Positions 13,431 to 56,578 of a stretch of 64,000 nucleotides of DNA are shown piece after piece. Positions within the stretch are counted from its first letter, which is position 1. Each line of letters begins with the position of its first letter. The DNA is from Gemmatimonadales bacterium (GTDB taxonomy: Bacteria > Gemmatimonadota > Gemmatimonadetes > Gemmatimonadales > GWC2-71-9). The notes under the pieces were generated by a model. It was not told the DNA's origin, did not search any database, and saw only the letters and a list, made by a program, of their open reading frames with translations. A program made the position numbers and the translations under genes. Location: positions 1,629-65,628 of the forward strand of contig DATBJH010000079.1 in the NCBI GenBank assembly GCA_036556505.1, given 5' to 3'.

Positions 13431-13505
13431 GAGCTATCCGTTATCGGTCAGGCACACCGTGGCTGGCCGGTGTGTTTACCGACAGCCGACAGCTGATAGC
13501 GGCTC
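13431..13505. repeat. Tandem-heptamer palindromic element, type B (CTATCGG-like arms)
   Basis: Left arm GAGCTATCCGTTATCGGTCAGG. Central hairpin CACACCG/CGGTGTG. Right arm CCGACAGCCGACAGCTGATAGCGGCTC. Lies between convergent genes. Confidence 0.6.
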
Positions 13506-13510
13506 GCGGA

Positions 13511-14545
13511 TCAGAGCTGCTCCAGGACGAGATAGGTCACCGCCGCGATCGCGGCACTCATCGGAATCGTCAGGATCCAGGCCCAGACGATTCTGCCCGC
13601 AACCCCCCATCGCACCGCCGACAACCGCTGCGCCGCGCCCACGCCCACGATCGCACCGGTGATTGTGTGCGTGGTGCTGACCGGCACGCCCAGGTGGGTC
13701 GCGATCAGGATCGCGATCCCGCCGCCGGTCTCGGCACAGAACCCGTTGAACGGACGCAGCTTGGTGATACGGGAGCCCATGGTTTTCACGATGCGCCAGC
13801 CGCCCATCGCGGTGCCGAGTGCGATGGCGATGTGGGCCGAGAGCACGATCCAGAGCGGCACATGGTCGGCCGTGCGAAGGTGGAAGTGGCTCAACAACCC
13901 GGTCGAGCCGACGAAGTGCGCCTGCGTGGCCACCAGCAGGCTCACGATGATGCCCATCGTCTTCTGGGCGTCGTTCGCCCCGTGGGAGAGCGAGTAGAGC
14001 GCAGCCGAGATCAGTTGGAGTCGTCGAAAGATCCGATCGAGTGGGCCCGGCGACGCGCTGCGCAAGGCCCAGGACAGGCCCACCGTGAGGAGGAGGGAGA
14101 CTGCCAGGCCCAGTAGCGGCGAGATCAGGATGAACAGGAGCGGCAAGGTCCATCCCCCGGGGATGAGGGCGCCGAACCCCGCCTTGGCGATGGCCGCGCC
14201 GGCATAGCCGCCGAGCAGCGCGTGGGACGAGGAGCTGGGAAGCCCACCCCACCACGTGATCAGGTCCCACACGATCGCGCCGATCAGCCCGCCCAGGATG
14301 ACGCTGGGGTCCACCACGTTGACGTCGATCAGCCCCTTGCCGATGGTCTTGGCCACGGCGGTGCCGACGATGAACGCCGCGATGAAGTTGAAGAAGGCGG
14401 CCCAGAACACCGCCACGCCGGGCGTGAGCACCCGGGTGGACACCACGGTGGCGATCGAATTGGCGCTGTCGTGAAAGCCATTGATGAAGTCGAAGGTGAG
14501 CGCGATGAAGACGATCACCAGGACGTAGAGGACGGTCCCGTCCAT
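13511..14545 (-). CDS. Inorganic phosphate transporter, PiT family
   Basis: ORF trimmed to MDGTVLYVLVIVFIALTFDFINGFHDSANSIAT (the PiT signature GFHDxAN, repeated later as SHGANDAQKTMG). Confidence 0.9.
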   Translation of the reverse strand: MDGTVLYVLVIVFIALTFDFINGFHDSANSIATVVSTRVLTPGVAVFWAAFFNFIAAFIVGTAVAKTIGKGLIDVNVVDPSVILGGLIGAIVWDLITWWGGLPSSSSHALLGGYAGAAIAKAGFGALIPGGWTLPLLFILISPLLGLAVSLLLTVGLSWALRSASPGPLDRIFRRLQLISAALYSLSHGANDAQKTMGIIVSLLVATQAHFVGSTGLLSHFHLRTADHVPLWIVLSAHIAIALGTAMGGWRIVKTMGSRITKLRPFNGFCAETGGGIAILIATHLGVPVSTTHTITGAIVGVGAAQRLSAVRWGVAGRIVWAWILTIPMSAAIAAVTYLVLEQL

Positions 14546-14547
14546 GC

Positions 14548-15168
14548 TCAGGCGTGCTTGATGGAAACGGACTCCAGCACGTTGGCCGCATCCTCGATGG
14601 TGTCGAGCGTCTTCTCGAGGTTGTCGTAGATCTCCTTCCACTTGATCACGTCGAGGGGATCGGGCGAGCCTTGGAACAGCCGTCCGAGCCATTCATGGTA
14701 GAGCGAATCGCCCTCCTCCTCCGCGCGCTTCACCTGGACGCACGCCGCCAGCACCGTGCCGCCCTTGTTCTTCTCCAGCGCCCGGACCCCCTCCTGCAGC
14801 TGAATCACGGCCTTGCCGATCACATCGGAGATCAGCACCGCGCCCTCGGGGGACTTGCCGGCGTGGAACAACAGCAGGCGCCGCGCGGTGCCGTCGATAA
14901 GGTCGATCACGTCGTCCAGGCGGGAGGCCAGGAGGTGGATGTCCTCCCGGTCGAGCGGGGTGATGAACACCCGGTCGAGTCGGGTGACCACATCGTGCGT
15001 CACCTGGTCGGCCTGGTGCTCCAGCCGCTTGATCTGGTCCACGATAGCGGTCCGCCGCTGGGCGTCGGCCCGGAGCAGCTCCTGCAGAAGACCCGCGGCC
15101 TCGACCGTCAAGCTGGCGACGGCGCTGAAGAAGTCGAAGAATTTCTCGTCGCGAGGCAGGAGGCGCAT
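14548..15168 (-). CDS. DUF47/PhoU-like phosphate transport accessory protein
   Basis: 206 aa starting MRLLPRDEKFFDFF..., helical. Located directly upstream of the PiT gene, which is the usual pairing. Confidence 0.85.
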   Translation of the reverse strand: MRLLPRDEKFFDFFSAVASLTVEAAGLLQELLRADAQRRTAIVDQIKRLEHQADQVTHDVVTRLDRVFITPLDREDIHLLASRLDDVIDLIDGTARRLLLFHAGKSPEGAVLISDVIGKAVIQLQEGVRALEKNKGGTVLAACVQVKRAEEEGDSLYHEWLGRLFQGSPDPLDVIKWKEIYDNLEKTLDTIEDAANVLESVSIKHA

Positions 15169-15261
15169 GTGTTACGTCCTGGTTACGGAAGCAAACGGTC
15201 GGGAAGATAGCACCGGCCCAGCCGCCGAGCTATCAGCGCTCCGGTTTTCTCGCTAAGTTGT

Positions 15262-18200
15262 GTGGCCCCTATGGCATCGCCCACCGACGCCAGCGCCCGG
15301 CTCGCCGCCGTCGCCCGGACCGCCCTCCTCGACACCCCGCCGGAGGAGGCGTTCGACCGTCTCACCCGGATGGCGGCCCGACTGCTCGGGGCCCCGGTCT
15401 CCCTCATCACCCTGGTCACCGACGATCGCCAGTTCTTCAAGAGCGCCATGGGCTTGCCCGAGCCCTGGGCGAGCCGCCGCAGCGCCCCGCTGAGCCACTC
15501 GTTCTGCCGCCAGGTGGCCGTCTCGGGTCAGCCGCTGGTGGTGGAGGACGCCCGGCGTCACCCGCTGCTCCGCGCCAATCCAGCGGTCCGGGAGTTCGGC
15601 TGGATCTCCTACGCCGGGGTGCCCCTGGTCACCCGGGATGGCGGGCTGGTGGGCTCGTTCAGCGTCGTGGACGGGATGCCCCGCCTCTGGTCGGAGCGGG
15701 ACGTCACTCTGCTGCGCGACCTCGCCGCCTGTGCCGCCTCCGAGATCGAGCTCCGGTTGCGGGAGACGCGCGACCCCGTGGCCAGGCCAGGCGGGAACGG
15801 CGGTCCCCATCCGCCCGAGGTCTTCGAGGACACCGGGATTCCGATGGGCGTCGCCTCTCCGGAAGGCCGCTGGGTCAGGGTCAACCGGGGCCTCGTCGAG
15901 CTGCTCGGGTATCGGGAGGACGAGCTGCTCGGCGCGCTGGCGGAAGGCATGATCCACCCCGACGACCGGCCGGTGCAGCGCGAGGCCCTGCGGCTGCTGC
16001 TCGCGGGCGAATGCTCTAGCTATACCTCGGAGCACCGCTGTGTCCCGCGCACCGGCGAGGCGATCTGGGGCCTCGTCACGGTGACGCTGGTGTCGGACGC
16101 CGCGGGTCGGCCGCGCCATCTGGTGTACGCCGTCCAGGACATCGGCGACCGGAAGCGGATCGAGGCGGAGCTCCGCGAGAGCGAGGAGCGCTACCGGCTG
16201 GTGGTGCAGGCCACCCGGCACGTCGCCTGGGACTGGAACCTGGTCAGCAATCGCGTGGTCTGGGGTGACGGCCTGGAGAGCCTGCTCGGCCATTCCCCGG
16301 CCGGCTCGATAACTACCGCCGACTGGTGGTACGAGCACATCCACGCCGAGGACCGGGAGCGCGTGGTGGCAGGCATCAGGGGCGCGCTGGACCGCGGGGA
16401 GCGCGCCTGGAACCAGGAGTATCGCTTCCGCCGGGGCGACGGCACCTACGCCCGGGTTACGGCCCGCGGCAACGTGATGACCGACCGGTCGGGCGATCCG
16501 GTCCGGGTGGTCGGTGCGCTGGCCGACGTGAGCCGGGAGCGGGAGGTCGAGGCGGAGCTTCGGGCCGACATCGCGGAGCGGCGGCGAGCCGAATCGTTGG
16601 CCGCCGGCCAGAGCCGGCTGCTCGAGCGGATCGCCACCGGTGAGGAGCTGGGCAGCGTGCTGGAGGCCATCGTCCGGTTCGCGGAGGAGCACGGCGACGG
16701 CACCGTCTCGCTCATGACGCTGGAGCAGGGCGGCGAGCAGCTCTGGTTGGCGGCGGCCCCCTCCCTGCCGCCGGAGGTCGCGATCGGCGTGCGACAGGTG
16801 CCGGTGGGACCGGCACACGGGAGCTGCGGCACCGCCGCATACCGGGGGACCCCGGTCATCGTCCGCGACATCGCGACCGATCCACTCTGGGACCATCCCG
16901 GTCGCGACGTCGTCCTGGCCGGCGGGCTGCGCGCCTGCTGGTCGGTCCCGGTGCTCTCCACCTCGGGGGCCGTCCTCGGGACGTTCGCGAATTACTACCG
17001 CGAGCCCACGGAGCCCTCCGCGGAGGAGCTCCGGACCATGGGGATCGCCAGCCATCTCGCGGGGATCGCGATCGAGCGCGCCCGGAACGTCGAGGCCGTG
17101 GCCCAATCCACCCGCCTGCTCCAGCAGGTGCTGGAGACGCTGCCGGTCGGGGTGTGGGTGATAGGTCCCAGCGGGCGCATCATCTACGGCAACGCCGCCG
17201 GCCAGCAGCTGTGGGGCGGGGTTCGCTACGTCGGGATCGACGGGTTCGCCCAGTTCAAGGGCTGGTGGCTGGACAGCGGGCGGGAGATCCGGCCGGACGA
17301 GTGGGCGGGGGCTCGGGCGGTCCGTGAAGGCGAGGTCTCGCTCAACGAGCTGATTCGGATCCAGGGATTCGACGGCTCGGAGCACATCATTCTCAACTCC
17401 GCGGTGCCGATCATGGGCGCGGGCGGCAGCATCGAGGGCGCCATCGTCCTCAATCAGGACGTGACCGAGCAGCGCGCGGCGGAGGACGCGCTGCGCCGGA
17501 GCGAAGAGCAGTTGCGCCAGGCGCAGAAGATGGAGGCCGTGGGGCAGCTCGCCGGTGGGATCGCACACGACTTCAACAACCTGCTCACCGCGATCCTGAG
17601 CTACTGCGAGCTGCTGCTGGAGGAAATCCGGCAGGGCGATCCCATCCGGGGCGACATCGAGCAGATCCGCCAGGCCGGCCAGCGTGCGGCCGGGCTCACC
17701 CGCCAGCTGCTCGCCTTCAGCCGCCGCCAGGTCCTCCAGCCCAAGGTGCTGTCGCTCAACGCGGTGGTCGAGAGCACCGAGGGCATGCTCCGCCGCCTCA
17801 TCGGCGCGGACATCGTGCTCGAAATACGGAGCGATCCCGCGCTGTGGCACGTGCTCGCCGACCCCGGCCAGATCGAGCAAGTCCTGGTGAACCTGGTGGT
17901 GAACGCTCGTGACGCGATGCCGCGGGGTGGTCGGATCCTGGTTGCCACGGGCAACCTGGAGCTGAAGGCGGATTCACCGATGCGCGGCAACGGCGTGCGG
18001 CCGGGCATGTATGTGTCGCTCCTGGTGCGTGACACCGGCGCGGGGATCGATCCCGCCCATCACGCCCGCATCTTCGAGCCGTTCTTCACGACCAAGGAGC
18101 CTGGGAAAGGCACCGGTCTGGGACTCTCGACCGTGTACGGGATCGTGCAGCAGAGTGGCGGACACGTCACCGTGGAGAGTACACCGGGCGAAGGGGCGGC

Positions 18201-18648: not shown

Positions 18649-18657
18649 ACGCGCCGC

Positions 18658-18740
18658 GTGAAAGGTGAAACGTAAGAGTTGAAAAGGAAGGACGCCGCAA
18701 AGCTGTCCCTCCTTTTCACCTTTTACGTTTCACTTTTCCC
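18658..18740. repeat. Tandem-heptamer palindromic element, type A (GTGAAAG-like arms)
   Basis: Left arm GTGAAAG GTGAAAC GTAAGAG TTGAAAA GGAAGG. Right arm CCCTCC TTTTCAC CTTTTAC GTTTCAC TTTTCCC. Lies between convergent genes, and the right arm overlaps the HAD gene 3-prime end. Confidence 0.65.
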
Positions 18741-19388
18741 GCTGTTTCGCACCAGAGCCAGCAGTTCGTCCGGCCGCTCCAGCCAGTAATCCGGCCGCGA
18801 CCCCTCGAGATGACTCCGGCCGAACGGTCCCCACAATGCCGCCGCCGTTCGCACACCTGCGGCGCGGCCGGCGATCATGTCGTGAACGCTGTCGCCGACG
18901 TACACTGTGGCGAGCGGGTCCGCGCCCAGGAGCCGCACCGCTTTCTCCACCGGCTCGGGATGGGGCTTGGGGTTCTCGACCTCGTCCGAGCAGACCAGCA
19001 CGTCCATCATCGCCTTGAGCTGTACCAGAGTGAGACCGCGAACCGCCCCCGCGCGGTTCTTGCTCGTCACCAGCCCGGTCGTGATCCCATTCTCCTTGAG
19101 CGCGCGCACGACATCCACCACCCCGGCATACACCGTCACCATCCGGTCGTGGTGCGTGAGGTTGTATTCGCGGTAGGTGGCGATCAGCGCATTCAGGGTC
19201 TCGGGGTCGTCCCCCCAGTCGGCGAACTGAGCCGTGAGCGGTGTCCCCACGCCGGCGAGCCACTCCTCGTCGGTGCGCGGCGGCAGTCCGTGAGTGGCAA
19301 GGGTGTGATGGTAGCTGTCCAGAATCAGGCGGACCGAGTCAATGAGGGTGCCGTCGAGGTCGAAGAGCACGGTGCGAATGGCTCGCAT
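18723..19388 (-). CDS. HAD-superfamily hydrolase (phosphoglycolate phosphatase/PpaX-like)
   Basis: Motif I VLFDLDGTLIDS, motif II VTSK, motif IV VYVGDSVHDM. Confidence 0.85.
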   Translation of the reverse strand: MRAIRTVLFDLDGTLIDSVRLILDSYHHTLATHGLPPRTDEEWLAGVGTPLTAQFADWGDDPETLNALIATYREYNLTHHDRMVTVYAGVVDVVRALKENGITTGLVTSKNRAGAVRGLTLVQLKAMMDVLVCSDEVENPKPHPEPVEKAVRLLGADPLATVYVGDSVHDMIAGRAAGVRTAAALWGPFGRSHLEGSRPDYWLERPDELLALVRNSGKSET

Positions 19389-19410: not shown

Positions 19411-21618
19411 TCAGGATGGGATGAAGAGCAGCACGCCCACCAGCCGGGGCTCGATCGTGCTCCAACGACCTTCGGCGACCGGCATCCGGGTCACCTCCCG
19501 CTCGAATCTCCCAGCCGGCAAGGCGGCGAGCCGCTCCAGCTCGAGCCTCTCCCCCGACGTGTGTCCTCGACCCACGAAGGCGAGTGCCCGCTCGAGCCCC
19601 GCCATCGCCTCGAGGTCCCGCCTCCGCGCCGCGTCCCGTACCGCGCAGTGCAGCCTCGACGAGAGCTGATGGGCGACCGGGTCGGCGGCCGGTGGGGACC
19701 AGCGACTCCCCCGCGACGCGCTGAGCCTCGCGCGAATCGGCTTTCCGAGCAGCTCCAGGGCCGCCTTGAGCCGCGCCGGTTCCCCCGCCGCTGCTGGCGA
19801 TTCCGAGGCAGCGGCGAGCCTGGCCGCCACCACCGACTCCTCCTCCGTCCACCCCCCGTCCTGATCAACCCAGACCAGCGTCGCCGAAAGCCGCCGGGCT
19901 GCGCTAGGGCGAAGCTCGTAGAGCTCGAACAGGGCGAGGACACCGGCGGGCCCGCGCGGCACCACGGCAACACCGGGGCTCGCCGGGCCGACGGCATACA
20001 GCTCCGCGAGCTCAGCACGCCACCTCCAGAGGCCCCGGCCCGCCAGGCCGAGTCCTGCCAACGAGGGTAGCTGCGCCTTCTGCGCCAGCGCTCGGGTCAT
20101 TCGCAGCGCACCATCCACCGCCGCCGGCGGACTGAACGTCACCACTTCCACGGTGGGATTCGAGGAACCCAGCCGCACTGCACGGCCTTCTCGCTGCTCC
20201 AGGCGCATGGGCGTCCAGGGGAGGTCGTAGTGGACTACCCTCGCGGCCCGTTGGAGATCCAGACCTTCGGCGGCGACATCGGTGGCGATCAGGTGACGCG
20301 CCGGCGGTCCCTCCGCCGACGGTTCACGAAACCAGCCCAGCACGGTCGCGCGCGGCAGTGGACAGGGGCCCAATCCCGCCCGGACGCCGGTACACCAGGC
20401 GAGTGCCGGCGGCGCCAGTCGGTCGCGAAGGTACCGGACCGTCTCCCGGCGCGAGGTGAAGACCAAGGTGGGCTTGCCATCCGCGATCAGCGTCCGGAGC
20501 CGCTCGACCTTGGCGTCAGGTGCCCCCTCAGCCCGCGCCGATTCGCGCAACACCTCGCCGATGGCATCGAGATCCTCCAGGGAGAGATCGCTGGAGTCAC
20601 CAGAACCAGGCATCAGCTCCCACCACACCAGCTGATCCTCCAGCTCACCTGCGAAGCGCCGGATCGCCGCTCGGTCCGGGGGCCGGCCTGCGCTCGCGGC
20701 GTCCCGGGCGTGCAGCAGCAGGTTGCGGTACCGCCGCAGGGCGGCAGAGAGTGCGGCGGGACTGGAAGCGGCCGCGCACCGCAGCACCGTACGGAGCAGC
20801 GCCTCGGTTCCCGGCACCCGCGAAAGCCGCAGCCGATCGAGTGAGGCGAGAGTCGCCTCGGCGGAGCTCGATTCTCCCGGCTCCGAGCGACTCGTCACGC
20901 TTCTGCGCGCCGGCCGCTGGCCCTCGGATGGCGCCGACTCGATGACCAGCTCCCCGAGCGCGGGCGATGCCTGCCCGCGGCCGAGCAGCGCCCGCAGGGA
21001 GGCCACGCCCTCGGCTGCCAGCGCGTCGTCGCGAATGGCGAGCAGGAGCTGGTGCAGGAGATCCGCGAGGCGATTGACGACCGGCGTCGCCGTCACCAGC
21101 AGCACCCGCCGGCCGACCAGCCAGGGTGCAGTGTGCCGGTAGCGCCAGGTGGCGGGGTTCCTGAAATGATGCGCCTCGTCCACGATCACCAGCCCCCGCC
21201 TGGCGGGCGGAAGCCTGCCCCGGCTCGCCGCTTCGTGCGAGGCAACCGCGATCGTGATGCCGAGGGACCTCGCGGTGGACCGCCACTGCTGCAACAGGGT
21301 TGCGGGGACAAGGCAGACGGGAGGGCGATGCGGCTCCAGCGCAGAGGCTACCGCCAGCGCCACGTACGTCTTGCCGCTTCCCACTGGGTCGGCGAGCATG
21401 GCGCCTCCGTGGCGCCGGATGGCATGCAACGCGCGCCGAAAGCTTCGCACCTGCTCGGGGCGGAGCCAGCCGGGTGCGGCATCCGGGTCCTCATCCGGCG
21501 TCAATCTGCGGGCCATGGCTCTGGCGACTTCGACTCCGCTCCGCCACTCACCGGGCCGGAGCGCTGTGACGAGGGGGTCCGGGACCGGGGTCAGCTCTTC
21601 AGCCACGATCCTCGGCAC
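19411..21618 (-). CDS. SNF2-family (SF2) helicase/ATPase
   Basis: Motifs I ADPVGSGKTYVA, II VIVDEAHHFRN, III LLVTATPVVN, V/VI ATDVAAEGLDLQ...QREGRAVRLGS. In-frame starts at GTG 21618, GTG 21606 (GTGGCTGA overlap with the methylase stop) or ATG 21690; the choice is uncertain. Confidence 0.85.
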   Translation of the reverse strand: MPRIVAEELTPVPDPLVTALRPGEWRSGVEVARAMARRLTPDEDPDAAPGWLRPEQVRSFRRALHAIRRHGGAMLADPVGSGKTYVALAVASALEPHRPPVCLVPATLLQQWRSTARSLGITIAVASHEAASRGRLPPARRGLVIVDEAHHFRNPATWRYRHTAPWLVGRRVLLVTATPVVNRLADLLHQLLLAIRDDALAAEGVASLRALLGRGQASPALGELVIESAPSEGQRPARRSVTSRSEPGESSSAEATLASLDRLRLSRVPGTEALLRTVLRCAAASSPAALSAALRRYRNLLLHARDAASAGRPPDRAAIRRFAGELEDQLVWWELMPGSGDSSDLSLEDLDAIGEVLRESARAEGAPDAKVERLRTLIADGKPTLVFTSRRETVRYLRDRLAPPALAWCTGVRAGLGPCPLPRATVLGWFREPSAEGPPARHLIATDVAAEGLDLQRAARVVHYDLPWTPMRLEQREGRAVRLGSSNPTVEVVTFSPPAAVDGALRMTRALAQKAQLPSLAGLGLAGRGLWRWRAELAELYAVGPASPGVAVVPRGPAGVLALFELYELRPSAARRLSATLVWVDQDGGWTEEESVVAARLAAASESPAAAGEPARLKAALELLGKPIRARLSASRGSRWSPPAADPVAHQLSSRLHCAVRDAARRRDLEAMAGLERALAFVGRGHTSGERLELERLAALPAGRFEREVTRMPVAEGRWSTIEPRLVGVLLFIPS

Positions 21619-24580
21619 TTCCTCGCAGGGCAGCGAGGAGCGTGCGGCGATGGGTCTCGGCGAGTGAGAGGTGTCGGGCAGTGACGTCATCGAGGTCCGG
21701 TTGCACGGCGTGGCCGTCCGCGGCGAGACGTGCGATGGTCGAGAGGTCCGGATCAGCAAGAGTGGTGTCCGGCAAGGGCAGGGCGCCGACCGTGGCCGCG
21801 GTGTAGCGGGAGCAACCGCCTGCGGCAGGCACCGCACCCGCCCATGCCGTGGCCCGGAGCCAGCTGCAGTTGAGCCAGGCCGCCAGGCGGTCCGCCTCCA
21901 GGTCGGTTCTCGCCAACGCCACGTAGCAGCTGTTGAGCGGCACCGTTTCCCTCATGGCGCTGAGAGAGACGGCTCGGAGGACACGCGCGAGATCTGCCCA
22001 GACGACTCGGTGCGGTGCGGTGGAGGCTTGGGTTCTAAACAGCGTCCACGGCGGGCCACCGGCATAGTCGGCGCGTGCGCGGAGGGCGTCGAGGTGCGGT
22101 GCCAGGTGGGCAGCGGTGAGCGGTGGCAGGCGGGGCAGGGGAGACCCGTCCCCGGCGTGGGTCCAGAGGAGCGGGGTGCGCTTGCGGACCGAGAACGGCG
22201 CGAGGTCCCGCCCCCGGATGGCCCACCGCAGCAGCTCAGGCTCCACTTCGGGTGGGTTCAGGAACAACCGGTTGGCGCCGGTCTTGAGCCCGAGGTGACA
22301 GGAGACGACCGAGTCGAGCGTCGGATGTTGCCCGCGCAGCTCGGCCAGCGCGGCCCGGAGCGGCTCGCGCCGCAGCACCCAGGGTCCACCGCCTCGAAGG
22401 CTCGCCTGCGTCGCCGTCGATGCCTGGCCGAGTGCAATCCGCACCCGGTGTCGGGGAGGGGGAGTCGAGTTGCGGATCACCAGCGCGAGCGGATACACCG
22501 TGGCTTCGAAAGTGGCGCGAGGATCGGCGGTGAGGTCGGCAACCGTGACGAGGGTGCTGCTCGCGGCCAATGCGTGGCGCATGGCGGTGCCGTACCCCGC
22601 CGCAGCGACCTTTGCGGGAGCCAGCATCGCCACCATGCCACCCGGTTTCGTGAGCTCGAGGGAGCGCTCGAGGAAGGCGACCGCGAGGTCCGGTCGATTG
22701 GCATAGCCTTTTCCACCGGGGCGCCACCAGCGATAGCGGCCCGCCAGCCGGTGCCGCAGCTCCGGCCGGAGCTCCTCCGCTCGTAGCCAGGGAGGATTCC
22801 CGACGACGAGATCGAAGCCTCCGGCCGCGAAGACGTCGGCGAACTGAACCCGGTAGTCGAACCAGGGCACCTGTCGCTCCCGGGTGAGAGCGCGTCGGAG
22901 GGCACGCACTTGCCGCAACTCACGCCGGAGCTCGGTGAGCCGCGCGAGCCCCGGACGGTCGAAGCCTCGCCGTCGGCCGAAGAGATCCGGCGAGCGGGCA
23001 GCTTCCAGGCATTCCGCGATGGATGACCGCGCCGAAGCATCGGCCTGCGCGAGTGTCAGGTCCGCGATCCGTGCCTCGAGCTGGATCAGCTCACCCAGCG
23101 CGGCACGTTTGGCCGCCCCCGTGGCGATCACGATTCGCCTCCTCAGTGCCGCGAGCTCCGCGACCGGTGCGATGCGACCTCGCGCCGGCGATGCGCAGCC
23201 GGTGGGATCGAACAGGCTGTCACCCTGGCGGATGAGGCAGTCGAGATTGGGAAGCGGTCGCACTCGCTCAGGACAATCGCTGGGATCGGCGGCGACGACG
23301 GCAAGCCAGAGCCGAAGCTCCGTGATCCGGACAGCGGCGCCGTTGACGTCCACGCCGAAGAGATTGCGCCGGAGCACCTGGCGGCGAAGGGCGGCACCAT
23401 GACGCCCGTCCGGCGAAGGCGGAATGAGTCGCTCGAGCGCGCCGAGGAGGAACGCACCCGAGCCGACCGCGGGGTCCAGCACTTTCAGGGTCCGCACCAA
23501 TCGCCAGGCGGAGCTCTCGCCCTCCGTCAACCGCCGCTCAGCTTCGGACTCGGAGCAGCCCAGCCGGTTGGCCACGAGCGGGACCAGAGCCTGGTCCAGC
23601 AGCTCCCGCACCAGGGCGGCCGGGGTGTAGTAAGTGCCCGACGCCCGACGCTCGTCCGGCGCCATCACTCCCTCGAACACGCGTCCCAGCATGTCCGGGG
23701 CGACGCCGCCGCGCTCATCGGCCTCGAGGGTGAAGTGGAAGCGCTCGAACAGCCCGTCGAACGCGCTTCTCCACAGCTCGTTGGGGATGTCCCGGCGGAG
23801 ACGCCGCTCGAGCGGGTGGGGCTCGAAGAGGCCGCCGTTCAGAAAGGGGATGGAGCCCAGCGCCAGCGCGCCGCGGTTGCGCTCTGCCGCCGGCCGATTG
23901 AGCGTGCCGAAGAAGAGAGGTCGCAGCAGATCGCGGTGGACTCTTTTCCTCCGGGCGAGACAGCCGTCCACGGCGTCGGCGAGAAACCGCGCATTGCCGG
24001 CCAGCCATCCCCTGGCCTGCACGAAGTAGAGGAAGAGGATCCGGGTGAGCTGCAGCAGAGCGACGGCGTGCCGGTCCTCGCCGCTGAGCGGGCCCGGCAG
24101 ACCGGCGGCCATCTGTTCGAGTGTGTTTCGGAACTGACGAAAGAAACGGACTCCCACGCTTTCGCCGCTCAGTGCCTCCACGGCGTGCGCTGCGAAGCCG
24201 GCCATCCCGCCGGGGGGTGAGGCCGCCAACCGACGCAGCTTCTCGAGTGCGGCCGCCGCCGGCCGATCGAGATCGAGCACCAGCCGGGGTGCACCATTGA
24301 GCGAGATGGTGACGGTAAGCCGGCGCAGACCCGGGTCGAGACCGAGCGCCCCGCAGACCCGCCCGCGCGCGGCCATCCGCGCTGCGAACGCCCGGGCGGC
24401 CACTTCCGCGCGTGGCCCCGCGAGGGCATACCACGCAAAGTCTCCCCGGCAACCCACGACGACCGTGGGCTCCCCCGGCCCGGGCACCGGATCCCAAAGC
24501 GGCTCGCCACCCAGCGTCGCGGCAAGGGCCGGAAGATCCTCGAGCGAGCGGACGCTGTGCAGCGTCTGCGCCAGGTCCAC
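21599..24580 (-). CDS. N6-adenine DNA methyltransferase, gamma class, Eco57I/MmeI/PglX-like with a large C-terminal target-recognition region
   Basis: 993 aa. Contains FLNGGLFE and MLGRVFEG blocks, motif I VLDPAVGSGAFLLGA and motif IV VVGNPPWLR. No PD-(D/E)xK or HNH motif found by eye. Confidence 0.85.
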   Translation of the reverse strand: MDLAQTLHSVRSLEDLPALAATLGGEPLWDPVPGPGEPTVVVGCRGDFAWYALAGPRAEVAARAFAARMAARGRVCGALGLDPGLRRLTVTISLNGAPRLVLDLDRPAAAALEKLRRLAASPPGGMAGFAAHAVEALSGESVGVRFFRQFRNTLEQMAAGLPGPLSGEDRHAVALLQLTRILFLYFVQARGWLAGNARFLADAVDGCLARRKRVHRDLLRPLFFGTLNRPAAERNRGALALGSIPFLNGGLFEPHPLERRLRRDIPNELWRSAFDGLFERFHFTLEADERGGVAPDMLGRVFEGVMAPDERRASGTYYTPAALVRELLDQALVPLVANRLGCSESEAERRLTEGESSAWRLVRTLKVLDPAVGSGAFLLGALERLIPPSPDGRHGAALRRQVLRRNLFGVDVNGAAVRITELRLWLAVVAADPSDCPERVRPLPNLDCLIRQGDSLFDPTGCASPARGRIAPVAELAALRRRIVIATGAAKRAALGELIQLEARIADLTLAQADASARSSIAECLEAARSPDLFGRRRGFDRPGLARLTELRRELRQVRALRRALTRERQVPWFDYRVQFADVFAAGGFDLVVGNPPWLRAEELRPELRHRLAGRYRWWRPGGKGYANRPDLAVAFLERSLELTKPGGMVAMLAPAKVAAAGYGTAMRHALAASSTLVTVADLTADPRATFEATVYPLALVIRNSTPPPRHRVRIALGQASTATQASLRGGGPWVLRREPLRAALAELRGQHPTLDSVVSCHLGLKTGANRLFLNPPEVEPELLRWAIRGRDLAPFSVRKRTPLLWTHAGDGSPLPRLPPLTAAHLAPHLDALRARADYAGGPPWTLFRTQASTAPHRVVWADLARVLRAVSLSAMRETVPLNSCYVALARTDLEADRLAAWLNCSWLRATAWAGAVPAAGGCSRYTAATVGALPLPDTTLADPDLSTIARLAADGHAVQPDLDDVTARHLSLAETHRRTLLAALRGSAEDRG

Positions 24581-34413: not shown

Positions 34414-34428
34414 ACCCCTTCGATTGGC

Positions 34429-44405: not shown

Positions 44406-44408
44406 GCT

Positions 44409-45531: not shown

Positions 45532-47349
45532 GTGCTCCGCCTCGCGATCGCGCAGTTACGGCCCCATAAGGGCGCCTACGAGGAGAATCTCTGCCGGCTC
45601 GGAGCGTACTTCCGGGAGGCCGGTGGGTGGGCGGAGCCGCCCGATCTGGTCGTGGCGCCGGAGGCGGCGCTCACCGGCTACTTTCTCGAGGGCGGGGTTC
45701 GCGATCTCGCTGTTCCCGGCGAGCGGCTGTTCGAGGATCTGTCCCGCCAGCACCGCGACGCCAAGGCCCCGCCCCTCGACGTCGCGCTCGGCTTTTACGA
45801 GCTGCACCAGAACCGGCTCTACAACTCCGCGCTCTATGCCCGACTGGGAGACGGCGACGCCGGCATCCGCCACATCCACCGGAAGGTGTTCCTCCCGACC
45901 TACGGCGTCTTCGACGAGGAGCGCTTTGTCGAGGCGGGTCGGAGCGTGCAGGCGTTCGACACGACCTGGGGACGCGCCGCCATTCTCATCTGCGAGGACG
46001 CCTGGCACTCTTTCGCCCCGATGCTCGCCGCCCTGGACGGAGCGCAGGTCATCATCATCCCGAGCGCGAGCCCGGCACGGGGCCCGGTGCCGGGCGAAGA
46101 CGGCGGGGGGCGGCCCGCGAGCCTGGCGCGGTGGAGCCGGATCGTCCAGGACATCGCCGGTGAGCACGGCGTCTTCGTCGCCCTTGCCCAGCTGGTAGGC
46201 TTCGAGGGCGGCAAGGCGTTCATCGGCGGCTCCCTGGCTGCCACCCCGCGCGGGGAGGTGATCGCTGAAGGGCCCATCTTCGAGGAAGCACTGGTCCCCG
46301 CACACCTGGACTTCGAGGAGATCACCCGGGCCCGCGCCGACTTGCCGCTGCTGGCCGACCTGGAGATGCGGTTGCCGCACCTGCTGGGATCGCTGCACGC
46401 GGCGAGGCGGGAGAGGGGCCGGACTGGTGGGACGGCGGGACAGCGGGACGGTGGGACGGAGACGGCCCTCAAGCAGCGGACCCCGAAGTCCCGCGAGCAC
46501 CGTCCCGCGGTCCCGCGGTCCCGCCGTCCCGCCGCCCCTCTGGAGATCGACCCCGAGCTCACCCGCCGCTGGCTGGTGGAGTTCCTCCGCGACGAGGTCC
46601 AGCGCCGTCGGGGATTCGAGAAGGTGGTGATCGGCCTGTCCGGCGGGGTGGATAGCTCGCTGGTGGCCTACCTGTCAGCGGAGGCGCTTGGCGCCGGGAA
46701 CGTCATCGGGGTGCGGATGCCCTATCGGACCTCGAGCCCGGAGAGCCTGGAGCACGCTCAGCTGGTGATCGATCGGCTCGGGATCGAGGGCCGCACGGTG
46801 GACATCACGGCGGCGGTGGATGGACTGGCCTCGGCGATCGGCGGCGGCCACGAGCCCGGGCGGCTGGGCAACATCATGGCGCGGGCCCGCATGATCACCC
46901 TCTTCGACCTCTCCGCGGCCGAACGGGCCCTCCCGGTGGGCACCGGCAACAAGACCGAGCGACTGCTGGGCTACTTCACTTGGCACGCCGACGATTCGCC
47001 GCCGGTGAACCCGATCGGCGATCTGTTCAAGACCCAGGTGTGGACGCTCGCGCGACACCTGCAGGTGCCCGAGGCCATTGTCTCCAAGCCCGCCAGCGCC
47101 GACCTGATCCAGGGCCAGACGGACGAGGGCGATTTCGGCATCTCCTATCCCCGCGCCGACGCCATCCTCCACTGGATTCTCCTCGGCTACCGGAACCCCG
47201 AGATCCTGCCGCTCGGATTCACCGAGGAGGAGATTGCCTTGGTCCGCCGGCGGCTGGACTCGACCCACTGGAAGCGGCGCCTGCCCACGGTGGCGATGCT
47301 CAGCGGAACCGCCATCGGCGAGTACTACCTGCGGCCGGTGGACTACTAG
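45532..47349 (+). CDS. nadE: Glutamine-dependent NAD+ synthetase (nitrilase/CN-hydrolase domain + NAD synthetase domain)
   Basis: GTG start at 45532 (LRLAIAQLRP). CN-hydrolase Glu/Lys/Cys region (APEAALTGY, HRKVFLPTYGVFDE, ILICEDAWH). PP-loop GLSGGVDSS. An unusual Arg/Gly/Pro-rich linker is encoded by a palindromic repeat. Confidence 0.9.
   Translation: MLRLAIAQLRPHKGAYEENLCRLGAYFREAGGWAEPPDLVVAPEAALTGYFLEGGVRDLAVPGERLFEDLSRQHRDAKAPPLDVALGFYELHQNRLYNSALYARLGDGDAGIRHIHRKVFLPTYGVFDEERFVEAGRSVQAFDTTWGRAAILICEDAWHSFAPMLAALDGAQVIIIPSASPARGPVPGEDGGGRPASLARWSRIVQDIAGEHGVFVALAQLVGFEGGKAFIGGSLAATPRGEVIAEGPIFEEALVPAHLDFEEITRARADLPLLADLEMRLPHLLGSLHAARRERGRTGGTAGQRDGGTETALKQRTPKSREHRPAVPRSRRPAAPLEIDPELTRRWLVEFLRDEVQRRRGFEKVVIGLSGGVDSSLVAYLSAEALGAGNVIGVRMPYRTSSPESLEHAQLVIDRLGIEGRTVDITAAVDGLASAIGGGHEPGRLGNIMARARMITLFDLSAAERALPVGTGNKTERLLGYFTWHADDSPPVNPIGDLFKTQVWTLARHLQVPEAIVSKPASADLIQGQTDEGDFGISYPRADAILHWILLGYRNPEILPLGFTEEEIALVRRRLDSTHWKRRLPTVAMLSGTAIGEYYLRPVDY
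46426..46538. repeat. Tandem-octamer palindromic element, type C (GGGACGGN arms), inside nadE
   Basis: Left arm GGT GGGACGGC GGGACAGC GGGACGGT GGGACGGA GACGG (46426-46465). Right arm CCGTCCCG CGGTCCCG CGGTCCCG CCGTCCCG CCGCCCC (46500-46538). Confidence 0.6.
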
Positions 47350-53176: not shown

Positions 53177-53902
53177 TCAAGAGCAGCTGATAACCCTTTT
53201 ACTTTTTCCCTTTAACCTTTCACCCATTCCCTGTGCACGCTTCCCGGTGCGGCACGCCTTCCGTACCGGGCACTCCCCACACTTCGCCACCCTCGCCGTG
53301 CAGATCAACGCACCCAGTTCCATCAGCCCCTGATTCACCTCCCAGGCTCGCTTTCCGTCCTTTGGAAGTATCGCCACCGCCGTCGCCCAGACGTGCCTCG
53401 GTGACGACTTCCTTCCGAGTCCAGGATGAAAGACCCGGCGAATGACCCTCGCCACGTTGGTGTCGACAGTGGCAGCGACCTGCTCATACGCGAAGCAGGC
53501 CACCGCGCCCGCGGTGTAGCGTCCCACGCCGGGCAATCGCTCCAGCTCCAAGGGATCGGACGGCATGACCCCAGCGTGCTGGTCCACCACCGCCTGCGCC
53601 AGCCGATGCAGGTTGGCCGCCCGGCGATAGTAGCCCAGCCCCTCCCAGCTCTCCCGGACCGCCGAGGCCGGGGCGGTGGCGAGCTCGTGGATGGTGGGAT
53701 ATCGCTCGAGGAAGCGGTGGTAGTACGCCTCCACCCGCGACACCTGGGTCTGCTGCAGCATGAATTCCGACACCACGATGTGATAGGGATCACGGGTCCG
53801 GCGCCAAGGGAGATCGCGGCCGTGCCGGCGATACCACCGCAGCAGGCCCCGGCGGAATGCGGCGGCCTGCCGCGCGCGCTCGGCCCTAGACTTAGTGGTC
53901 AT
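53177..53902 (-). CDS. HhH-GPD base-excision glycosylase, MutY-like (no C-terminal NUDIX-like domain)
   Basis: LPWRRTRDPYHIVVSEFMLQQTQV, HhH LPGVGRYTAGAV, catalytic VDTNV, and a 4Fe-4S cluster loop CTARVAKCGECPVRKAC. Confidence 0.85.
   Translation of the reverse strand: MTTKSRAERARQAAAFRRGLLRWYRRHGRDLPWRRTRDPYHIVVSEFMLQQTQVSRVEAYYHRFLERYPTIHELATAPASAVRESWEGLGYYRRAANLHRLAQAVVDQHAGVMPSDPLELERLPGVGRYTAGAVACFAYEQVAATVDTNVARVIRRVFHPGLGRKSSPRHVWATAVAILPKDGKRAWEVNQGLMELGALICTARVAKCGECPVRKACRTGKRAQGMGERLKGKSKRVISCS
53194..53225. repeat. Solo arm of a type A heptamer array (CTTTTAC TTTTTCC CTTTAAC CTTTCAC)
   Basis: Heptamer periodicity seen within the last ~17 codons of the MutY-like ORF. I found no matching opposite arm nearby. 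Confidence 0.45.
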
Positions 53903-53933
53903 GGCAAGCGAAGATACGTGCGGCCGGGGGGGA

Positions 53934-54034
53934 GAGCTATCGGCTATCGGCTATCAGCTATCAGCGGTGATGGTTGAGGGCCGGGAGCTCTCCCCCATTA
54001 TCCCCTATGGTCCATAGCCGATAGCCGATAGCTC
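53934..54034. repeat. Tandem-heptamer palindromic element, type B (best-preserved copy)
   Basis: Left arm GAGCTATCG GCTATCG GCTATCA GCTATCA GCGG. Right arm CCATAGC CGATAGC CGATAGCTC. The arms are complementary at 22 of 23 positions. A nested GGGGGAGAGCT/AGCTCTCCCCC pair sits at 53928-53938 and 53985-53995. Confidence 0.7.
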
Positions 54035-54043
54035 ACAACTCCC

Positions 54044-54829
54044 GTGGACGCGCAGACACTCGATCTCCGCCGCTTCGTCGGCCGCTGGGCCCTGGAGGCC
54101 ATGTCCCACGTGGGCCGGGTCTCGCTCATGATGTGGGACACCGCCAAGACCCTCACCGAGTGGCGCGTGTGGCTGCCCCGCACCATGACCGAGGCGTGGA
54201 ACATCGGGGTCGGCAGCCTCTTCATCGTCCTCCTCATCTCCGGCTTTGCCGGCGCCGTCACGGCGCTCCAGGCCCGCTATCAGTTCACCGGCACCATCCC
54301 CATCTACTACCTGGCCGGGGTGATCGTCGAGTCCATCGTGCTGGAGCTGGGGCCCGTGCTCACCGGTCTGGTGCTCGCCGGCCGGATCGGTGCCCGCTAC
54401 GCTGCTGAGCTGGGAACGATGCGGGTCACCGAGCAGATCGACGCCCTCGAGAGCCTCGGCCGCTCGCCGGGGTCGCACTTGATCCTCCCGCGGGTGCTGG
54501 CGGGCTTCATCATGATCCCGGTGCTCGTCATCCTCGCCGACGTGATGGGCATCTTCGCCGGCTGGTTCTCGATGACCGTGGTGCTGCCCATCACTAACGA
54601 AGACTTCGCCTACGGGGCGCGCTCGTTCTGGCGGCCGTTCGACGCGACCTACTCCGTCATCAAGGCCTTCTTCTTCGCCGGGTCCATCACCATCATCGCC
54701 TGCTACATGGGCTTCAACACCAAGCAGGGCGCCGAAGGCGTGGGCCGCGCCACCACCGGCGCGGTGGTCGCGAGCTCGGTGCTGATCCTGTTGCTCGACG
54801 TGCTCCTCGCCAACCTGTTCCTGGCCTAG
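54044..54829 (+). CDS. mlaE: MlaE-family ABC transporter permease
   Basis: 261 aa. ELGPVLTGLVLAGRIGARYAAELGTMRVTEQIDALESLG is the MlaE signature region. Confidence 0.9.
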   Translation: MDAQTLDLRRFVGRWALEAMSHVGRVSLMMWDTAKTLTEWRVWLPRTMTEAWNIGVGSLFIVLLISGFAGAVTALQARYQFTGTIPIYYLAGVIVESIVLELGPVLTGLVLAGRIGARYAAELGTMRVTEQIDALESLGRSPGSHLILPRVLAGFIMIPVLVILADVMGIFAGWFSMTVVLPITNEDFAYGARSFWRPFDATYSVIKAFFFAGSITIIACYMGFNTKQGAEGVGRATTGAVVASSVLILLLDVLLANLFLA

Positions 54830-55582
54830 ATGATTCTCCTCCGCGACGTGCACAAGCGCTTCGGCAGCCAGGTCGTGCTCGACGGCGTCAATCTCGACGT
54901 ACAGGAGGGCGAGACCCTCGCCTTGCTGGGTCCCTCGGGCACCGGAAAGAGCGTCCTCCTCAAGCACATCATCGGACTTATCCGGCCCGACTCCGGCATC
55001 GTGGTGGTGGACGACCAGGACGTGGGGAAGCTCCGGCGTAAGGAGCTGGCCGAGCTCCGCTCCAGGATCGGCTACGTCTTCCAGAACGGCGCGCTGTTCG
55101 ACTCGATGGACGTGTTCGAGAACGTGCGGTTGGGCATCACCGACGAGGACAAGTTCCGGGACGTGGACTACGCCCGCGAGCGGGTCGCCGGCTGCCTCAA
55201 GCTGGTGAATCTCGCGCCCGAGGTGATGGCCAAGTTTCCGGCGGAGCTGTCGGGCGGCATGCGGAAGCGGGTCGGGATCGCCCGGGCCATCGCGGGCAGC
55301 CCCAAGTACCTGCTCTACGACGAGCCCACCTCGGGCCTCGACCCGGTGAACGCCGACGTGATCGACGGTCTGGTGAAGCGCCTCGACAACGAGCTGGGCG
55401 TCACCAGCGTCATGGTGACGCACGACGTGCGCGGGGCCTTCCGCACCGCCGACCGTCTGGCGTTGCTCACCGGAGGGAAGATCGTGCAGCAGGGGACCCA
55501 GGAAGAGTTTCTGAAGTCGAACAACCCCAAGGTGCAGGAGTTCCTGGAGCGGGACTTCCCGGACGCCACCTTCGCCGCCTGA
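54830..55582 (+). CDS. mlaF: MlaF-family ABC transporter ATP-binding protein
   Basis: Walker A GPSGTGKS, signature LSGGMRKRVGIARA, Walker B LLYDEPTSGLD. Confidence 0.9.
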   Translation: MILLRDVHKRFGSQVVLDGVNLDVQEGETLALLGPSGTGKSVLLKHIIGLIRPDSGIVVVDDQDVGKLRRKELAELRSRIGYVFQNGALFDSMDVFENVRLGITDEDKFRDVDYARERVAGCLKLVNLAPEVMAKFPAELSGGMRKRVGIARAIAGSPKYLLYDEPTSGLDPVNADVIDGLVKRLDNELGVTSVMVTHDVRGAFRTADRLALLTGGKIVQQGTQEEFLKSNNPKVQEFLERDFPDATFAA

Positions 55583-55589
55583 GACCGAC

Positions 55590-56501
55590 ATGGATCTGAG
55601 CTACAAGAGGGAAGTCACCGTCGGCAGCCTCGTGATACTGGCCATCGTGCTCTTCGTCGTGGGGACCAGCTGGCTGAGCGGCCGCTCGATCACCGCGGAC
55701 GAGGACGAGTTCTGGAAGGTCCAGTTCCGGTCCGCGAGCAACCTCAAGGCCAGCTCCCCGGTGCGCATCTCGGGTGTGCCTGTGGGGAAGGTCGAACGCA
55801 TTCAGCTGGTGGATGTCGGCAAGGTGCTGGTGATGATCACGCTCCCGGACCGGATCGTCCCGCGGGTGGACGCGAGCGCGCAGGTCGTGGCGGTGGGCTT
55901 CGTGGGCGACGCGGCGATCGAGCTCAACCCCGGGCAGGCGCCCCAGCCCCTCACCCGGGACCGGGTGATTCTCGGGACGCAGGCCGCGGGGTTCGGCGAT
56001 CTGGCCCAGAGCCTCGGCGACCGCGCGGACAGCGTCCTGCTCGGCGCCCAGCAGATCGTGAACAAGCGGACGGCGGACGAGCTCTATGCCACCCTCACGG
56101 CGCTCCAGGGGACGCTCAAGGCGGCGGAGCGGACGATGCGGGTGTACGGCGACGCCCAGAACGGACCGACGGCTCAGCTCACGAAGACGCTGGCCAGTCT
56201 GGAGCAGCTGACAACCCGGCTCGACAGCACCCTCGCCAACCCCGCCCTGGCGCGCACGCTCCAGCGGGCGGACACCCTCACCGGTAACCTGGCCACCATG
56301 ACCGCGCAGTTCAGCTCGACCGGCGCCCAGCTCGACACCCTGCTGGCCAACCTGAACCAGGGGCGGGGCACGATGGGGAAGTTCACCACCGACACCGGGC
56401 TGTACACCGATCTCCGCCAGGTCTCGCAGTCGCTGAAGGAGTTCCTGGACGATCTGAAGAAGCATCCAGGCAAGATTCCGGTGACGGTGGAGATTTTTTA
56501 A
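55590..56501 (+). CDS. MlaD/MCE-domain protein with a helical C-terminal extension
   Basis: N-terminal TM, MCE fold segment (SPVRISGVPVGKVERIQL), and a long helical tail. Confidence 0.85.
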   Translation: MDLSYKREVTVGSLVILAIVLFVVGTSWLSGRSITADEDEFWKVQFRSASNLKASSPVRISGVPVGKVERIQLVDVGKVLVMITLPDRIVPRVDASAQVVAVGFVGDAAIELNPGQAPQPLTRDRVILGTQAAGFGDLAQSLGDRADSVLLGAQQIVNKRTADELYATLTALQGTLKAAERTMRVYGDAQNGPTAQLTKTLASLEQLTTRLDSTLANPALARTLQRADTLTGNLATMTAQFSSTGAQLDTLLANLNQGRGTMGKFTTDTGLYTDLRQVSQSLKEFLDDLKKHPGKIPVTVEIF

Positions 56502-56516
56502 CAGAACAGCGTAACC

Positions 56517-56578
56517 GTGAAGGTAAGAGGTGAAAAGGAGTCGACCCCCCTTTTCACCTTTCACTTTTTACCTTTCCC
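56517..56578. repeat. Tandem-heptamer palindromic element, type A
   Basis: Left arm GTGAAGG TAAGAG GTGAAAAGG. Loop AGTCGACCCC. Right arm CCTTTTCAC CTTTCAC TTTTTAC CTTTCCC. Lies between the mlaD-like stop and the rnz start. Confidence 0.65.

Follow-up and report, generated by a model that had tools for sequence, protein, structure and literature searches.

Why should a bacterium carry palindromes whose arms are themselves tandem arrays of a 7- or 8-nt unit, and what are such elements? The question is raised by a 64,000-nt stretch of contig DATBJH010000079.1 (hereafter the window; G+C ∼69%), the source of which is an uncultured soil Gemmatimonadales. The nearest homologs of its glutamine-dependent NAD+ synthetase, NadE, are labelled "MAG: Gemmatimonadales bacterium" (MAG, metagenome-assembled genome), and the DNA of the window was recovered in soil and rhizosphere metagenome runs. 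The original prediction had described at least eight loci of this layout in three sequence types, A (GTGAAAG-like units), B (GCTATCG-like units), and C (GGGACGGN). The elements are real, non-random, and widespread. As had been proposed, they are members of a genuine family, in which a single architecture is built from several types of unit, and this family extends well beyond the window into related genomes and public collections.

All of the sequences listed in that prediction are present at the positions given for them. An array scan, in which at least three units of 7–8 nt and a reverse-complement partner no more than 160 nt away were required, detected six tandem-arm palindromes in the window (B1, A1, A2, C, B3, and A3), compared to a mean of 0.085 and a maximum of 2 in dinucleotide shuffles (n = 200). 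Tandem Repeats Finder likewise reported period-7 or period-8 arrays in the element arms. A1, A2, A3, B3, and C are the top-ranking inverted repeats of the window, with arms of 48 nt (B3), 43 nt (C; 79% complementary), 38 nt (A1; 87%), 35 nt (A2; 77%), and 19 nt (A3). RNA folding of the six palindromes gave z scores from -2.6 to -9.5 relative to shuffles. The two other loci, B2 and A4, are solo arrays. A scan of the window against Rfam 15 at the gathering score returned a sole match, tRNA-Asn at 9769–9841.

The type A palindromes are closely tied to the 3′ ends of genes. A1 (18656–18742; 38-nt arms and an 11-nt loop) lies between convergent genes for a histidine kinase and a HAD hydrolase and begins after the histidine kinase stop at 18648. 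Its left arm consists of the units GTGAAAG/GTGAAAC/GTAAGAG/TTGAAAAG, the right arm is complementary, and the predicted RNA fold is very stable on either strand (free energy, dG, -53.8 on the plus and -50.4 on the minus strand; z -9.5 and -8.5). The right arm also holds the last six codons and the stop of the HAD hydrolase gene (18723–18742, ..NSGKSET*), the TAA stop being part of a GTAAAAG unit. A2 (34427–34533; fold z -3.9) starts 14 nt past the stop of a ZIP transporter gene at 34413. The loop of A2 contains the GGAG and the ATG (34466) of the downstream gene, which encodes an outer-membrane (Phenol_MetA_deg) protein, and the hairpin would therefore sequester the translation start of that gene; in the same region (34457–34533), the right arm encodes APLHISLFTAHA in the signal-peptide-like N terminus of the protein. 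A3 (56517–56578; fold z -4.0) occupies the spacer between mlaD and a metallo-beta-lactamase-fold gene (MBL), 16 nt from the mlaD stop at 56501 and 16 nt from the ATG at 56594. When soil strains were compared for unit-number polymorphism in DNA contigs, the only variants seen were 1-nt indels at A3, and the arrays map to multiple places.

The same placement recurs outside the window. Seven syntenic contigs from related MAGs, L001–L007, were selected by way of nadE and not for their type A content; their NadE proteins are 80%–92% identical. Those type A elements that were checked in the nadE-selected loci start no more than 16 nt past a stop codon or overlap one. In L001, the stops at 11851, 16625, 20312, and 21320 are followed by elements starting at ∼11860, 16630, 20318, and 21336, and in L007, a stop at 20591 is followed by one at 20596. 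The gene contexts of 79 type A palindromes from many phyla were then tabulated, with flanking ORFs (open reading frames) no more than 400 nt away and heuristic ORF calls: 55 separate tandem (co-directional) genes, 21 separate convergent genes, and only 3 separate divergent ones. They lie a median of 5 nt past the preceding stop and 35 nt short of the following start. The earlier claim that most copies follow stop codons or separate convergent genes fails for three elements: C, which is intragenic, B3, which occupies a divergent spacer next to a start codon, and A4, which is coding.

The two arms of these palindromes are not interchangeable. Among sequences of the IMG/VR collection, the GTGAA arm comes first in 66 stretches and is reversed in 5, three of which look genuine. 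In type B, the CTATC arm precedes its partner in 6 cases versus 1, and arrays of GCTGATA in forward orientation have their inverted partner on the 5′ side in 47 cases versus 0; for the Gemmatimonadales forward arrays, 8 of 10 have such a partner. Unit types that played no part in locus selection follow the same rule, with the purine-rich arm first in 58 elements versus 19 (p ∼1e-5). A supply of stop codons in all three frames was considered as the sole cause of this polarity and rejected: elements that lack a stop trinucleotide in either arm still place the purine-rich arm first in 19 cases versus 2, so the polarity is more than a stop-codon effect.

Period 7 accounts for most arrays in every locus set. 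The units consist of a conserved core and two freer positions (GTGAA + NN, GCTGA + NN), and neighboring units differ mostly at these NN positions (6 and 7), with the caveat that the arrays were phased by the core and are subject to ascertainment. All 16 NN variants occur. The NN positions are left unconstrained by the search pattern and can report on pairing: they are fully complementary between the two arms in 76 of 191 elements, compared to 12 expected. The arms of one element thus covary.

Type B elements share the architecture and occupy more varied positions. B1 (13431–13505) is a degenerate palindrome, with GCTATCC and GTTATCG on the left and CCGACAG, CCGACAG, and CTGATAG on the right, between convergent genes for a glycosyltransferase (stop 13414) and a PHO4 phosphate transporter (stop 13511); its RNA fold has z scores of -2.6 (+) and -4.1 (-). 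B2 (28131–28165, plus strand) is the solo array GTTATCG GTTATCA GCTATCG GTTATCG GC, with period 7 and 4.1 copies, and starts one base past the stop of an LD-carboxypeptidase gene (28128–28130). On its own it has no unusual fold (z -0.16). The degenerate sequences at 28264–28333 that had been proposed as its partner form no pairs with B2 in the minimum-energy fold, and the duplex of the two is weakly better than shuffles (z -2.5), so this partnership was rejected. B3 (53928–54041) is the palindrome (GCTATCG/GCTATCA)x4.4 - loop - (ATAGCCG)x2.7 with G/C clamps (dG -74.5, z -7.6). It lies in the divergent spacer between a gene for a HhH-GPD glycosylase and mlaE, and its right arm ends ∼10 nt before the mlaE start (GTG 54044). 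The forward arrays of B3, L004, and L007 end 10–19 nt before the mlaE starts, and in viral contigs, the median distance from the end of a forward GCTGATA-type array to the start codon is 22 nt; B1 and B2 are found at gene 3′ ends. The single GAGCTATCAGCG unit noted at 15223–15234 (plus strand) does exist, in the divergent spacer between a PhoU-like gene and a histidine kinase gene. This unit may represent the seed or the remnant of an array, and single GCTATCGG units are present for comparison at the B3-orthologous site in L003 and L006; as a lone 12-mer it is beyond statistical evaluation.

The type C element is found in a different setting, within the coding sequence of nadE (45388–47349, plus strand). 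No recorded protein matched the long form of this ORF exactly, since its start codon had been placed wrongly. It extends from 46411 to 46540 on the same strand as (GGGACGGN)x5, a 40-nt loop, and (NCCGTCCC)x5, and it folds strongly (dG -98.9, z -5.7; arms 88% complementary over 34 nt). The element is in frame, and its translation (GRTGGTAGQRDGGT...HRPAVPRSRRPAAP) forms the linker between the CN-hydrolase and NAD-synthase domains (amino acids 51–316 and 396–633). An alignment of 120 orthologs shows this interdomain linker to be hypervariable in length and sequence, and the linker peptides that are kept correspond to the translated arms (GRTGGQRDGGT ... AVPPSRRPAVP). The hairpin is clear in 4 of 8 loci (z -5.7 in the window, -7.4 in L002, -6.0 in L006, and -3.5 in L007), weaker in three (z ∼-2), and absent in L005 (-0.7); it is kept in most orthologs examined, down to ∼80% protein identity. 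The repeat unit varies by locus (GGGACGGN, GGACCGNC, or GGACGGAC), and the hairpin persists despite the differing units; the two arms therefore co-evolve in place, although the sequence is coding. In some orthologs the linker also houses nested repeats of other families, and it is therefore a permissive landing site as well. One of them is a second palindromic family, GTCACCCTGA(A/G)CGAAG(T/C)GAAGGGG ... CCCCTTCGC..CTCAGGGTGAC, seen at 20030–20100 of L002 and, translated as SVTLSEAKG, in the NadE linkers of many orthologs (e.g., L007 ∼10950–11030). A further repeat, CTCGACAAGCTCGGGGCAGGC (peptide APSTSSGQA), is likewise nested in NadE linkers.

A4 (53194–53225) is a solo type A arm, which reads GGGTGAAAGGTTAAAGGGAAAAAGTAAAAGGG on the minus strand and supplies the last codons (GERLKGKSKR) of the HhH-GPD glycosylase gene, within its final 16 codons. 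It is followed by one type-B-like unit (GTTATCAGC) and then by the stop of the gene. The C terminus of the protein at 53177–53225 (..GERLKGKSKRVISCS*) is thus drawn from a repeat arm, with the last residues from the type-B-like unit. In L001, the orthologous arm lies at 17061–17087 and its partner at 16630–16661, 400 nt off; in the window, the other arm is reduced to a degenerate GTAAATA after the stop at 52990. By this comparison, A4 is the remnant of a split palindrome. The arms in L001 (16630–17087) are parted by ∼400 nt of inserted sequence, and the same intergenic slot holds a small GIY-YIG gene in three relatives (L002 16467–16766, L003 14528–14830, and L007 16835–17137); the split arms and the GIY-YIG slot could reflect insertion into a hairpin loop.

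Comparison of orthologous sites indicates rapid turnover. At the mlaD-MBL site, a type A hairpin is present in the window, L001, and L007, a different palindrome of the GTCACCCTGA-type repeat family is present in L002, and none is present in L003–L006. The type A hairpins at this site differ in unit variants, unit number, and loop (GTGAAAA.. in L001, GTGAAGC.. in L007), and their arms are still paired. At the HhH-GPD/mlaE site, a type B palindrome is found in the window and in L007, which carries the literal CTGATAACTGATAG, and the start-proximal (right) arm alone in L004. A decayed copy remains in L001, a single unit in L003 and L006, and L002 and L005 have no copy. Neither target-site duplications nor fixed termini were seen when filled orthologous sites were compared to empty ones, and the loops are unrelated. 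Such presence and absence, together with solo arms at orthologous sites, is turnover typical of simple sequence repeats (SSRs). The L001–L007 loci hold many further elements of types A, B, and C as well as a type with 9-nt units; a single lineage thus harbors no fewer than four unrelated types of unit.

The family is not confined to Gemmatimonadota. The pattern (GTGAANN)n-loop-(NNTTCAC)n matched at least 120 stretches in GTDB genomes, usually with 3–6 units per arm; carriers among the matches listed include Gemmatimonadales, Pyrinomonadaceae, Chitinophagaceae, Saprospiraceae, Chloroflexota, Planctomycetota, Betaproteobacteria, Verrucomicrobiota, and others. The type B arm pattern was found in 73 IMG/VR stretches of 29%–72% GC, many of them palindromic and many directly before a Shine-Dalgarno sequence and ATG, and the type C pattern in 65 metagenome stretches. 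The B and C arms of the window also occur in DNA contigs from soil, where they are joined to other loops. Overall, dozens of unit sequences are arranged in this one architecture across unrelated phyla and phages. A single phage-like contig can hold several unit types; palindromes of octamers or nonamers of the CACGGAGA / ACACAGAG type lie beside type B arrays on the phage-like contigs L020 (IMG/VR; 829–960), L155, and L175.

RNA contigs from soil metatranscriptomes hold the arrays in many different contexts. Three of them (53941–54090, 54017–54211, and 54023–54182) join B3 to mlaE, and another (13289–13502) runs from the glycosyltransferase (GT4) gene through B1 and ends at the 3′ base of the hairpin. 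RNA contigs that break off at 18667 and begin again at 18752 flank A1 (at very low depth), and one contig ends at 56540 inside A3. These ends, in contigs with a depth of only 2–9x, are compatible with transcript boundaries and prove nothing about them. Pure-culture RNA sequencing runs considered for the Methylomicrobium locus L137, from a cultivated carrier, share only 5%–15% of words with it; they therefore came from another strain and were left unused.

Taken together, the elements are best described as inverted pairs of short SSR arrays with 7–9-nt units, which would form long imperfect hairpins at gene boundaries once transcribed. The reading that we favor, and to which we give an even chance, is that they act as transcribed gene-boundary hairpins in 3′-end formation or mRNA protection and are kept complementary by slippage and arm-to-arm correction. 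The unit arrays would grow and shrink by replication slippage, and the arms would be held complementary by intramolecular template switching (quasi-palindrome correction), by selection for pairing, or by both; orthologous copies would therefore vary in units, number, and loops while their arms match. Type A elements lie directly after stop codons and, whichever strand is read, have their purine-rich arm on the 5′ side and their pyrimidine-rich arm on the 3′ side. This post-stop placement and the strand-symmetric purine-then-pyrimidine polarity are hard to explain without transcription, and position and polarity suggest that type A elements are most likely bidirectional gene-end RNA structures without a U-tract. 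Their effect would be to halt or pause transcription, or to obstruct 3′ exonucleases, so that mRNA 3′ ends are defined and stabilized. Type B, which additionally lies ∼10–30 nt upstream of start codons, is likely to form structures in 5′ untranslated regions or between cistrons, and type C would be another such element, one that a disordered protein linker tolerates in frame.

Several observations weigh against this interpretation. Hairpins that lack a U-tract ("I-shaped" terminators) have been proposed for high-GC bacteria, and like intrinsic terminators in general, type A hairpins stand right after stops, would serve both directions between convergent genes, and have a pyrimidine-rich 3′ side. 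Unlike canonical intrinsic terminators, they have no U-tract (2.9 T in 9 nt after the stem on the sense strand versus 3.1 on the antisense), their stems of 14–54 bp, with a median of 26 bp, far exceed the usual ∼5–14 bp, and their arms are periodic. The canonical form was therefore rejected. The suggested role as terminators or mRNA stabilizers is reasonable in view of the tight linkage of type A to gene 3′ ends. Sense RNA was the more stable in 32 of 55 comparisons and antisense RNA in 23 (p 0.28, not significant), and thus no G:U signature of selection at the RNA level was detected. Solo arrays are common. The placement of B3 in a divergent promoter region and of C and A4 inside coding sequence means that one function cannot cover all copies. 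The 79 tabulated contexts depend on heuristic ORF calls, and at 2–9x depth, 3′ ends cannot be mapped in the metatranscriptome contigs. Finally, no regulatory role was found for analogous Xanthomonas repeats (Rehm et al., 2015; PMC4692102).

A bolder form of the same idea, which we advance only tentatively and consider rather doubtful, is that tandem-arm palindromes are a pan-bacterial and phage gene-end signal with a fixed polarity, a purine arm followed by its complement ∼5 nt past the stop and no U-tract. They would constitute a general non-canonical, bidirectional terminator or 3′-end module, which a protein reading 7-nt units might tune and which would be self-renewing by slippage and arm-to-arm templated correction and able to persist in a coding linker such as that of nadE.

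If the elements had no function at all, they would be a neutral or selfish by-product of slippage where insertions are tolerated and of hairpin-templated repair, and their positions would simply be those where insertions do no harm. Rapid gain, loss, and replacement at orthologous sites, solo and split arms, the lack of G:U strand asymmetry, and copies that have become coding (in the nadE linker, in C-terminal tails, and in a signal-peptide-like N terminus) all fit this explanation, as does the dominance of period 7, which matches a polymerase-slippage bias in the account of Mrazek et al. (2007) given in PMC4679880. Symmetric slippage and template switching, on the other hand, do not predict that the purine arm comes first (66 versus 5, 58 versus 19, and 19 versus 2). 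Also against this explanation are a stop distance (median 5 nt) much tighter than that to the next start (35 nt), core positions that vary less than the two variable positions (with the ascertainment caveat given above), and a nadE linker hairpin kept in most orthologs down to ∼80% protein identity; a mere by-product is in our judgment unlikely. The arrays could also serve to bind a protein, each monomer of which would read ∼7 nt of single-stranded RNA or DNA, such as a cold-shock-domain or S1-like OB-fold protein, with the hairpin as a chaperone-operated switch for regulated read-through or translation. Cold-shock domains bind ∼6–7 nt. The dominance of period 7, the conserved 5-nt core (GTGAA, GCTGA) with two free positions, and the forward GCTGATA-type arrays a median of 22 nt before viral starts, as in TAACTGA repeats, would suit such a protein, and one array lies upstream of a csp-like gene in L073 (a single anecdote). 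The proposal is less persuasive when one considers that no candidate protein was identified, that at least four unrelated unit types in one lineage would call for several specificities or for none, that the arrays are mostly sequestered in very stable duplexes, and that all 16 NN variants occur, and we regard it as improbable.

Copying by a transposase acting in trans, as in REPIN- or MITE-like (miniature inverted-repeat transposable element) non-autonomous elements, would account for the many copies per community (the bins of the B3 arm reach a depth of 470–990, compared to ∼15–25 in most other bins), for the same arms found elsewhere with other loops, for filled and empty orthologous sites, and for the different palindromic repeat at the same site in L002. 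As had been predicted, however, no RAYT/IS200-type transposase was found in the window: a Pfam search of its ∼50 main ORFs matched no transposase family. Conserved full-length copies are absent, loops and variable positions differ between copies, and filled and empty sites show neither target-site duplications nor fixed termini. The recurrence of one architecture with dozens of unit sequences across unrelated phyla and phages favors a process over a copied sequence. RAYT or MITE mobility was rejected on these grounds, and mobility of any such kind is very unlikely. Least probable of all are structures acting at the level of DNA, cruciforms or, for type C, a G-quadruplex/i-motif, with effects on replication, supercoiling, or nucleoid organization. 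Long near-perfect inverted repeats can extrude as cruciforms, the type C arms contain four GGG tracts, separated by loops no longer than 5 nt, and fit, as a sequence pattern alone, a G3-N5 motif of four or more G3 tracts, and analogous GGGAATC arrays form G-quadruplexes in vitro (PMC4692102). Against this, G-tracts are lacking in types A and B, the close association with stop and start codons is indicative of a role in gene expression and not in chromosome structure, and the polarity rule concerns the direction in which a strand is read.

The architecture itself is not a new class, contrary to the original prediction that this kind of repeat was undescribed, since it has already been reported (PMC4692102 and PMC4679880). 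Xanthomonas campestris and X. axonopodis carry ∼185 arrays of GGGANTN heptamers per genome, typically of ∼4 units with conserved and variable positions, and in 70–75 cases per genome two arrays on opposite strands converge on each other as an inverted pair (Rehm et al., 2015; PMC4692102). Of these arrays, 89%–93% are intergenic; their average distance is 28 nt to the ORF upstream and 160 nt to the one that follows. They are depleted between divergent ORFs (7%–8%), vary in length and sequence at the same site between related species, and have no assigned function (PMC4692102). The present elements resemble them in their tandem ∼7-nt units with heterogeneity at particular positions (6 and 7 of GTGAANN) and in the close placement of same-unit arrays on opposite strands with a fixed arm order (6 window loci). 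Type A is similarly nearer to the upstream ORF and rare between divergent genes; B3, C, and A4 are the exceptions in the window. They differ in their units (GTGAANN, GCTATCR, and GGGACGGN), in their phylum, Gemmatimonadota, in that types A and B cannot form G-quadruplexes, and in that one copy lies in frame inside a gene. Polarity statistics and spread across phyla are absent from the Xanthomonas study (PMC4692102).

Type B has a second precedent. Direct repeats of TAACTGA are found immediately before start codons in marine Beggiatoaceae, Cyanobacteria, and Bacteroidetes (MacGregor, 2015; PMC4679880); S1, Csp, and CsrA were proposed as their binders, and 1 of 170 sets in Beggiatoa is inverted (PMC4679880). 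Read on the opposite strand, type B units are (C/T)GATA(G/A)C, i.e., TAGCTGA, TAGCCGA, or TAACTGA, and thus share the register of these repeats, as they share arrays of 2–6 units that are sometimes split by related heptamers. In position the type B elements are mixed: the forward arrays of B3, L004, and L007 end close to start codons, as TAACTGA repeats do, and B1 and B2 stand at gene 3′ ends. In contrast to the TAACTGA repeats, type B is mostly palindromic and G/C-substituted. More generally, heptanucleotide SSRs are the dominant class of long SSRs in prokaryotes (Mrazek et al., 2007), and heptameric short tandemly repeated repetitive (STRR) sequences occur in cyanobacteria (Mazel et al., 1990), both as cited in PMC4679880 and PMC4692102. 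As represented there, these repeats share with ours period 7, an intergenic location, and polymerase slippage as the proposed origin, and they are described as direct arrays, without inverted pairing, polarity, or adjacency to stop codons.

Like repetitive extragenic palindromic (REP) elements and the related BIME and REPIN, most of our palindromes are intergenic, form hairpins, and often lie at gene 3′ ends. REP elements can stabilize upstream mRNA; each is a single conserved imperfect palindrome, the sequence of which is fixed within a genome and which a Y1 transposase disperses. Unlike REP and REPIN elements, the arms here are internally periodic, copies differ in units, number, and loop, and RAYT is lacking among the ∼50 window ORFs. 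The lack of target-site duplications or fixed ends at filled and empty sites and the unrelated loops likewise set them apart from MITEs. Rickettsia palindromic elements (RPEs) are ∼100–150 bp long, conserved in sequence, without tandem-unit arms, and restricted to Rickettsia; with them the type C palindrome has in common that it is tolerated in frame in a coding gene, in surface or linker regions. No paper on such elements in Gemmatimonadota or on GTGAANN palindromes was found in the open-access literature, and a search of it by literal sequence (GTGAAAAGTGAAAA, AGCTATCAGCTATC, and similar) returned no relevant paper. What is added to the known architecture, namely GTGAANN hairpins across phyla, adjacency to stop codons at 5 nt, purine-first polarity, and an in-frame nadE hairpin with co-evolving arms, may be worth experimental follow-up.

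Some other features of the window were noted in passing. Directly beside A1, on the minus strand (19411–24580), a SNF2-like helicase gene adjoins a large gene for an Eco57I/MmeI-type N6-adenine methylase, and the two may be a restriction or defense pair. Two paralogous small ORFs of ∼45–50 amino acids (5205–5362 and 5560–5690, minus strand) have repeated GTGAAT/CTATCGTGAAT or GTGAAAC words in the spacers upstream of them (5420–5470 and 5740–5800), which could be binding sites for a regulator. A 17-nt unit, TTGGCGGAAGGCAGGAT, is repeated 3.4 times at 8122–8178, 10 nt past the stop (8112) of a BTAD/AAA_16 regulator gene; this array has no inverted partner, and its period is unlike that of the family studied here. 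The gene for a DUF4384 protein (42471–44351) contains coding tandem repeats at 43210–43346 and 43756–44074, with 15- and 9-nt units and a 141-nt unit present 2.3 times.

For annotation, the elements matter in that they extend ORFs or create spurious ones and leave odd peptide tails (GRTGGQRDGGT.., ..PSRRPAVPP, and ..GERLKGKSKR) in metagenome gene calls. Few recognizable intrinsic terminators are found in many environmental phyla, among them Gemmatimonadota, Acidobacteriota, Chloroflexota, Planctomycetota, and Bacteroidota. If the hairpins do mark transcript ends, they would allow the operon boundaries of uncultured bacteria and their phages to be read by a simple rule from sequence and would explain why heptamers dominate among the long SSRs of prokaryotes. 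A mutational process, slippage combined with palindrome correction, would then both create and maintain a functional RNA structure.

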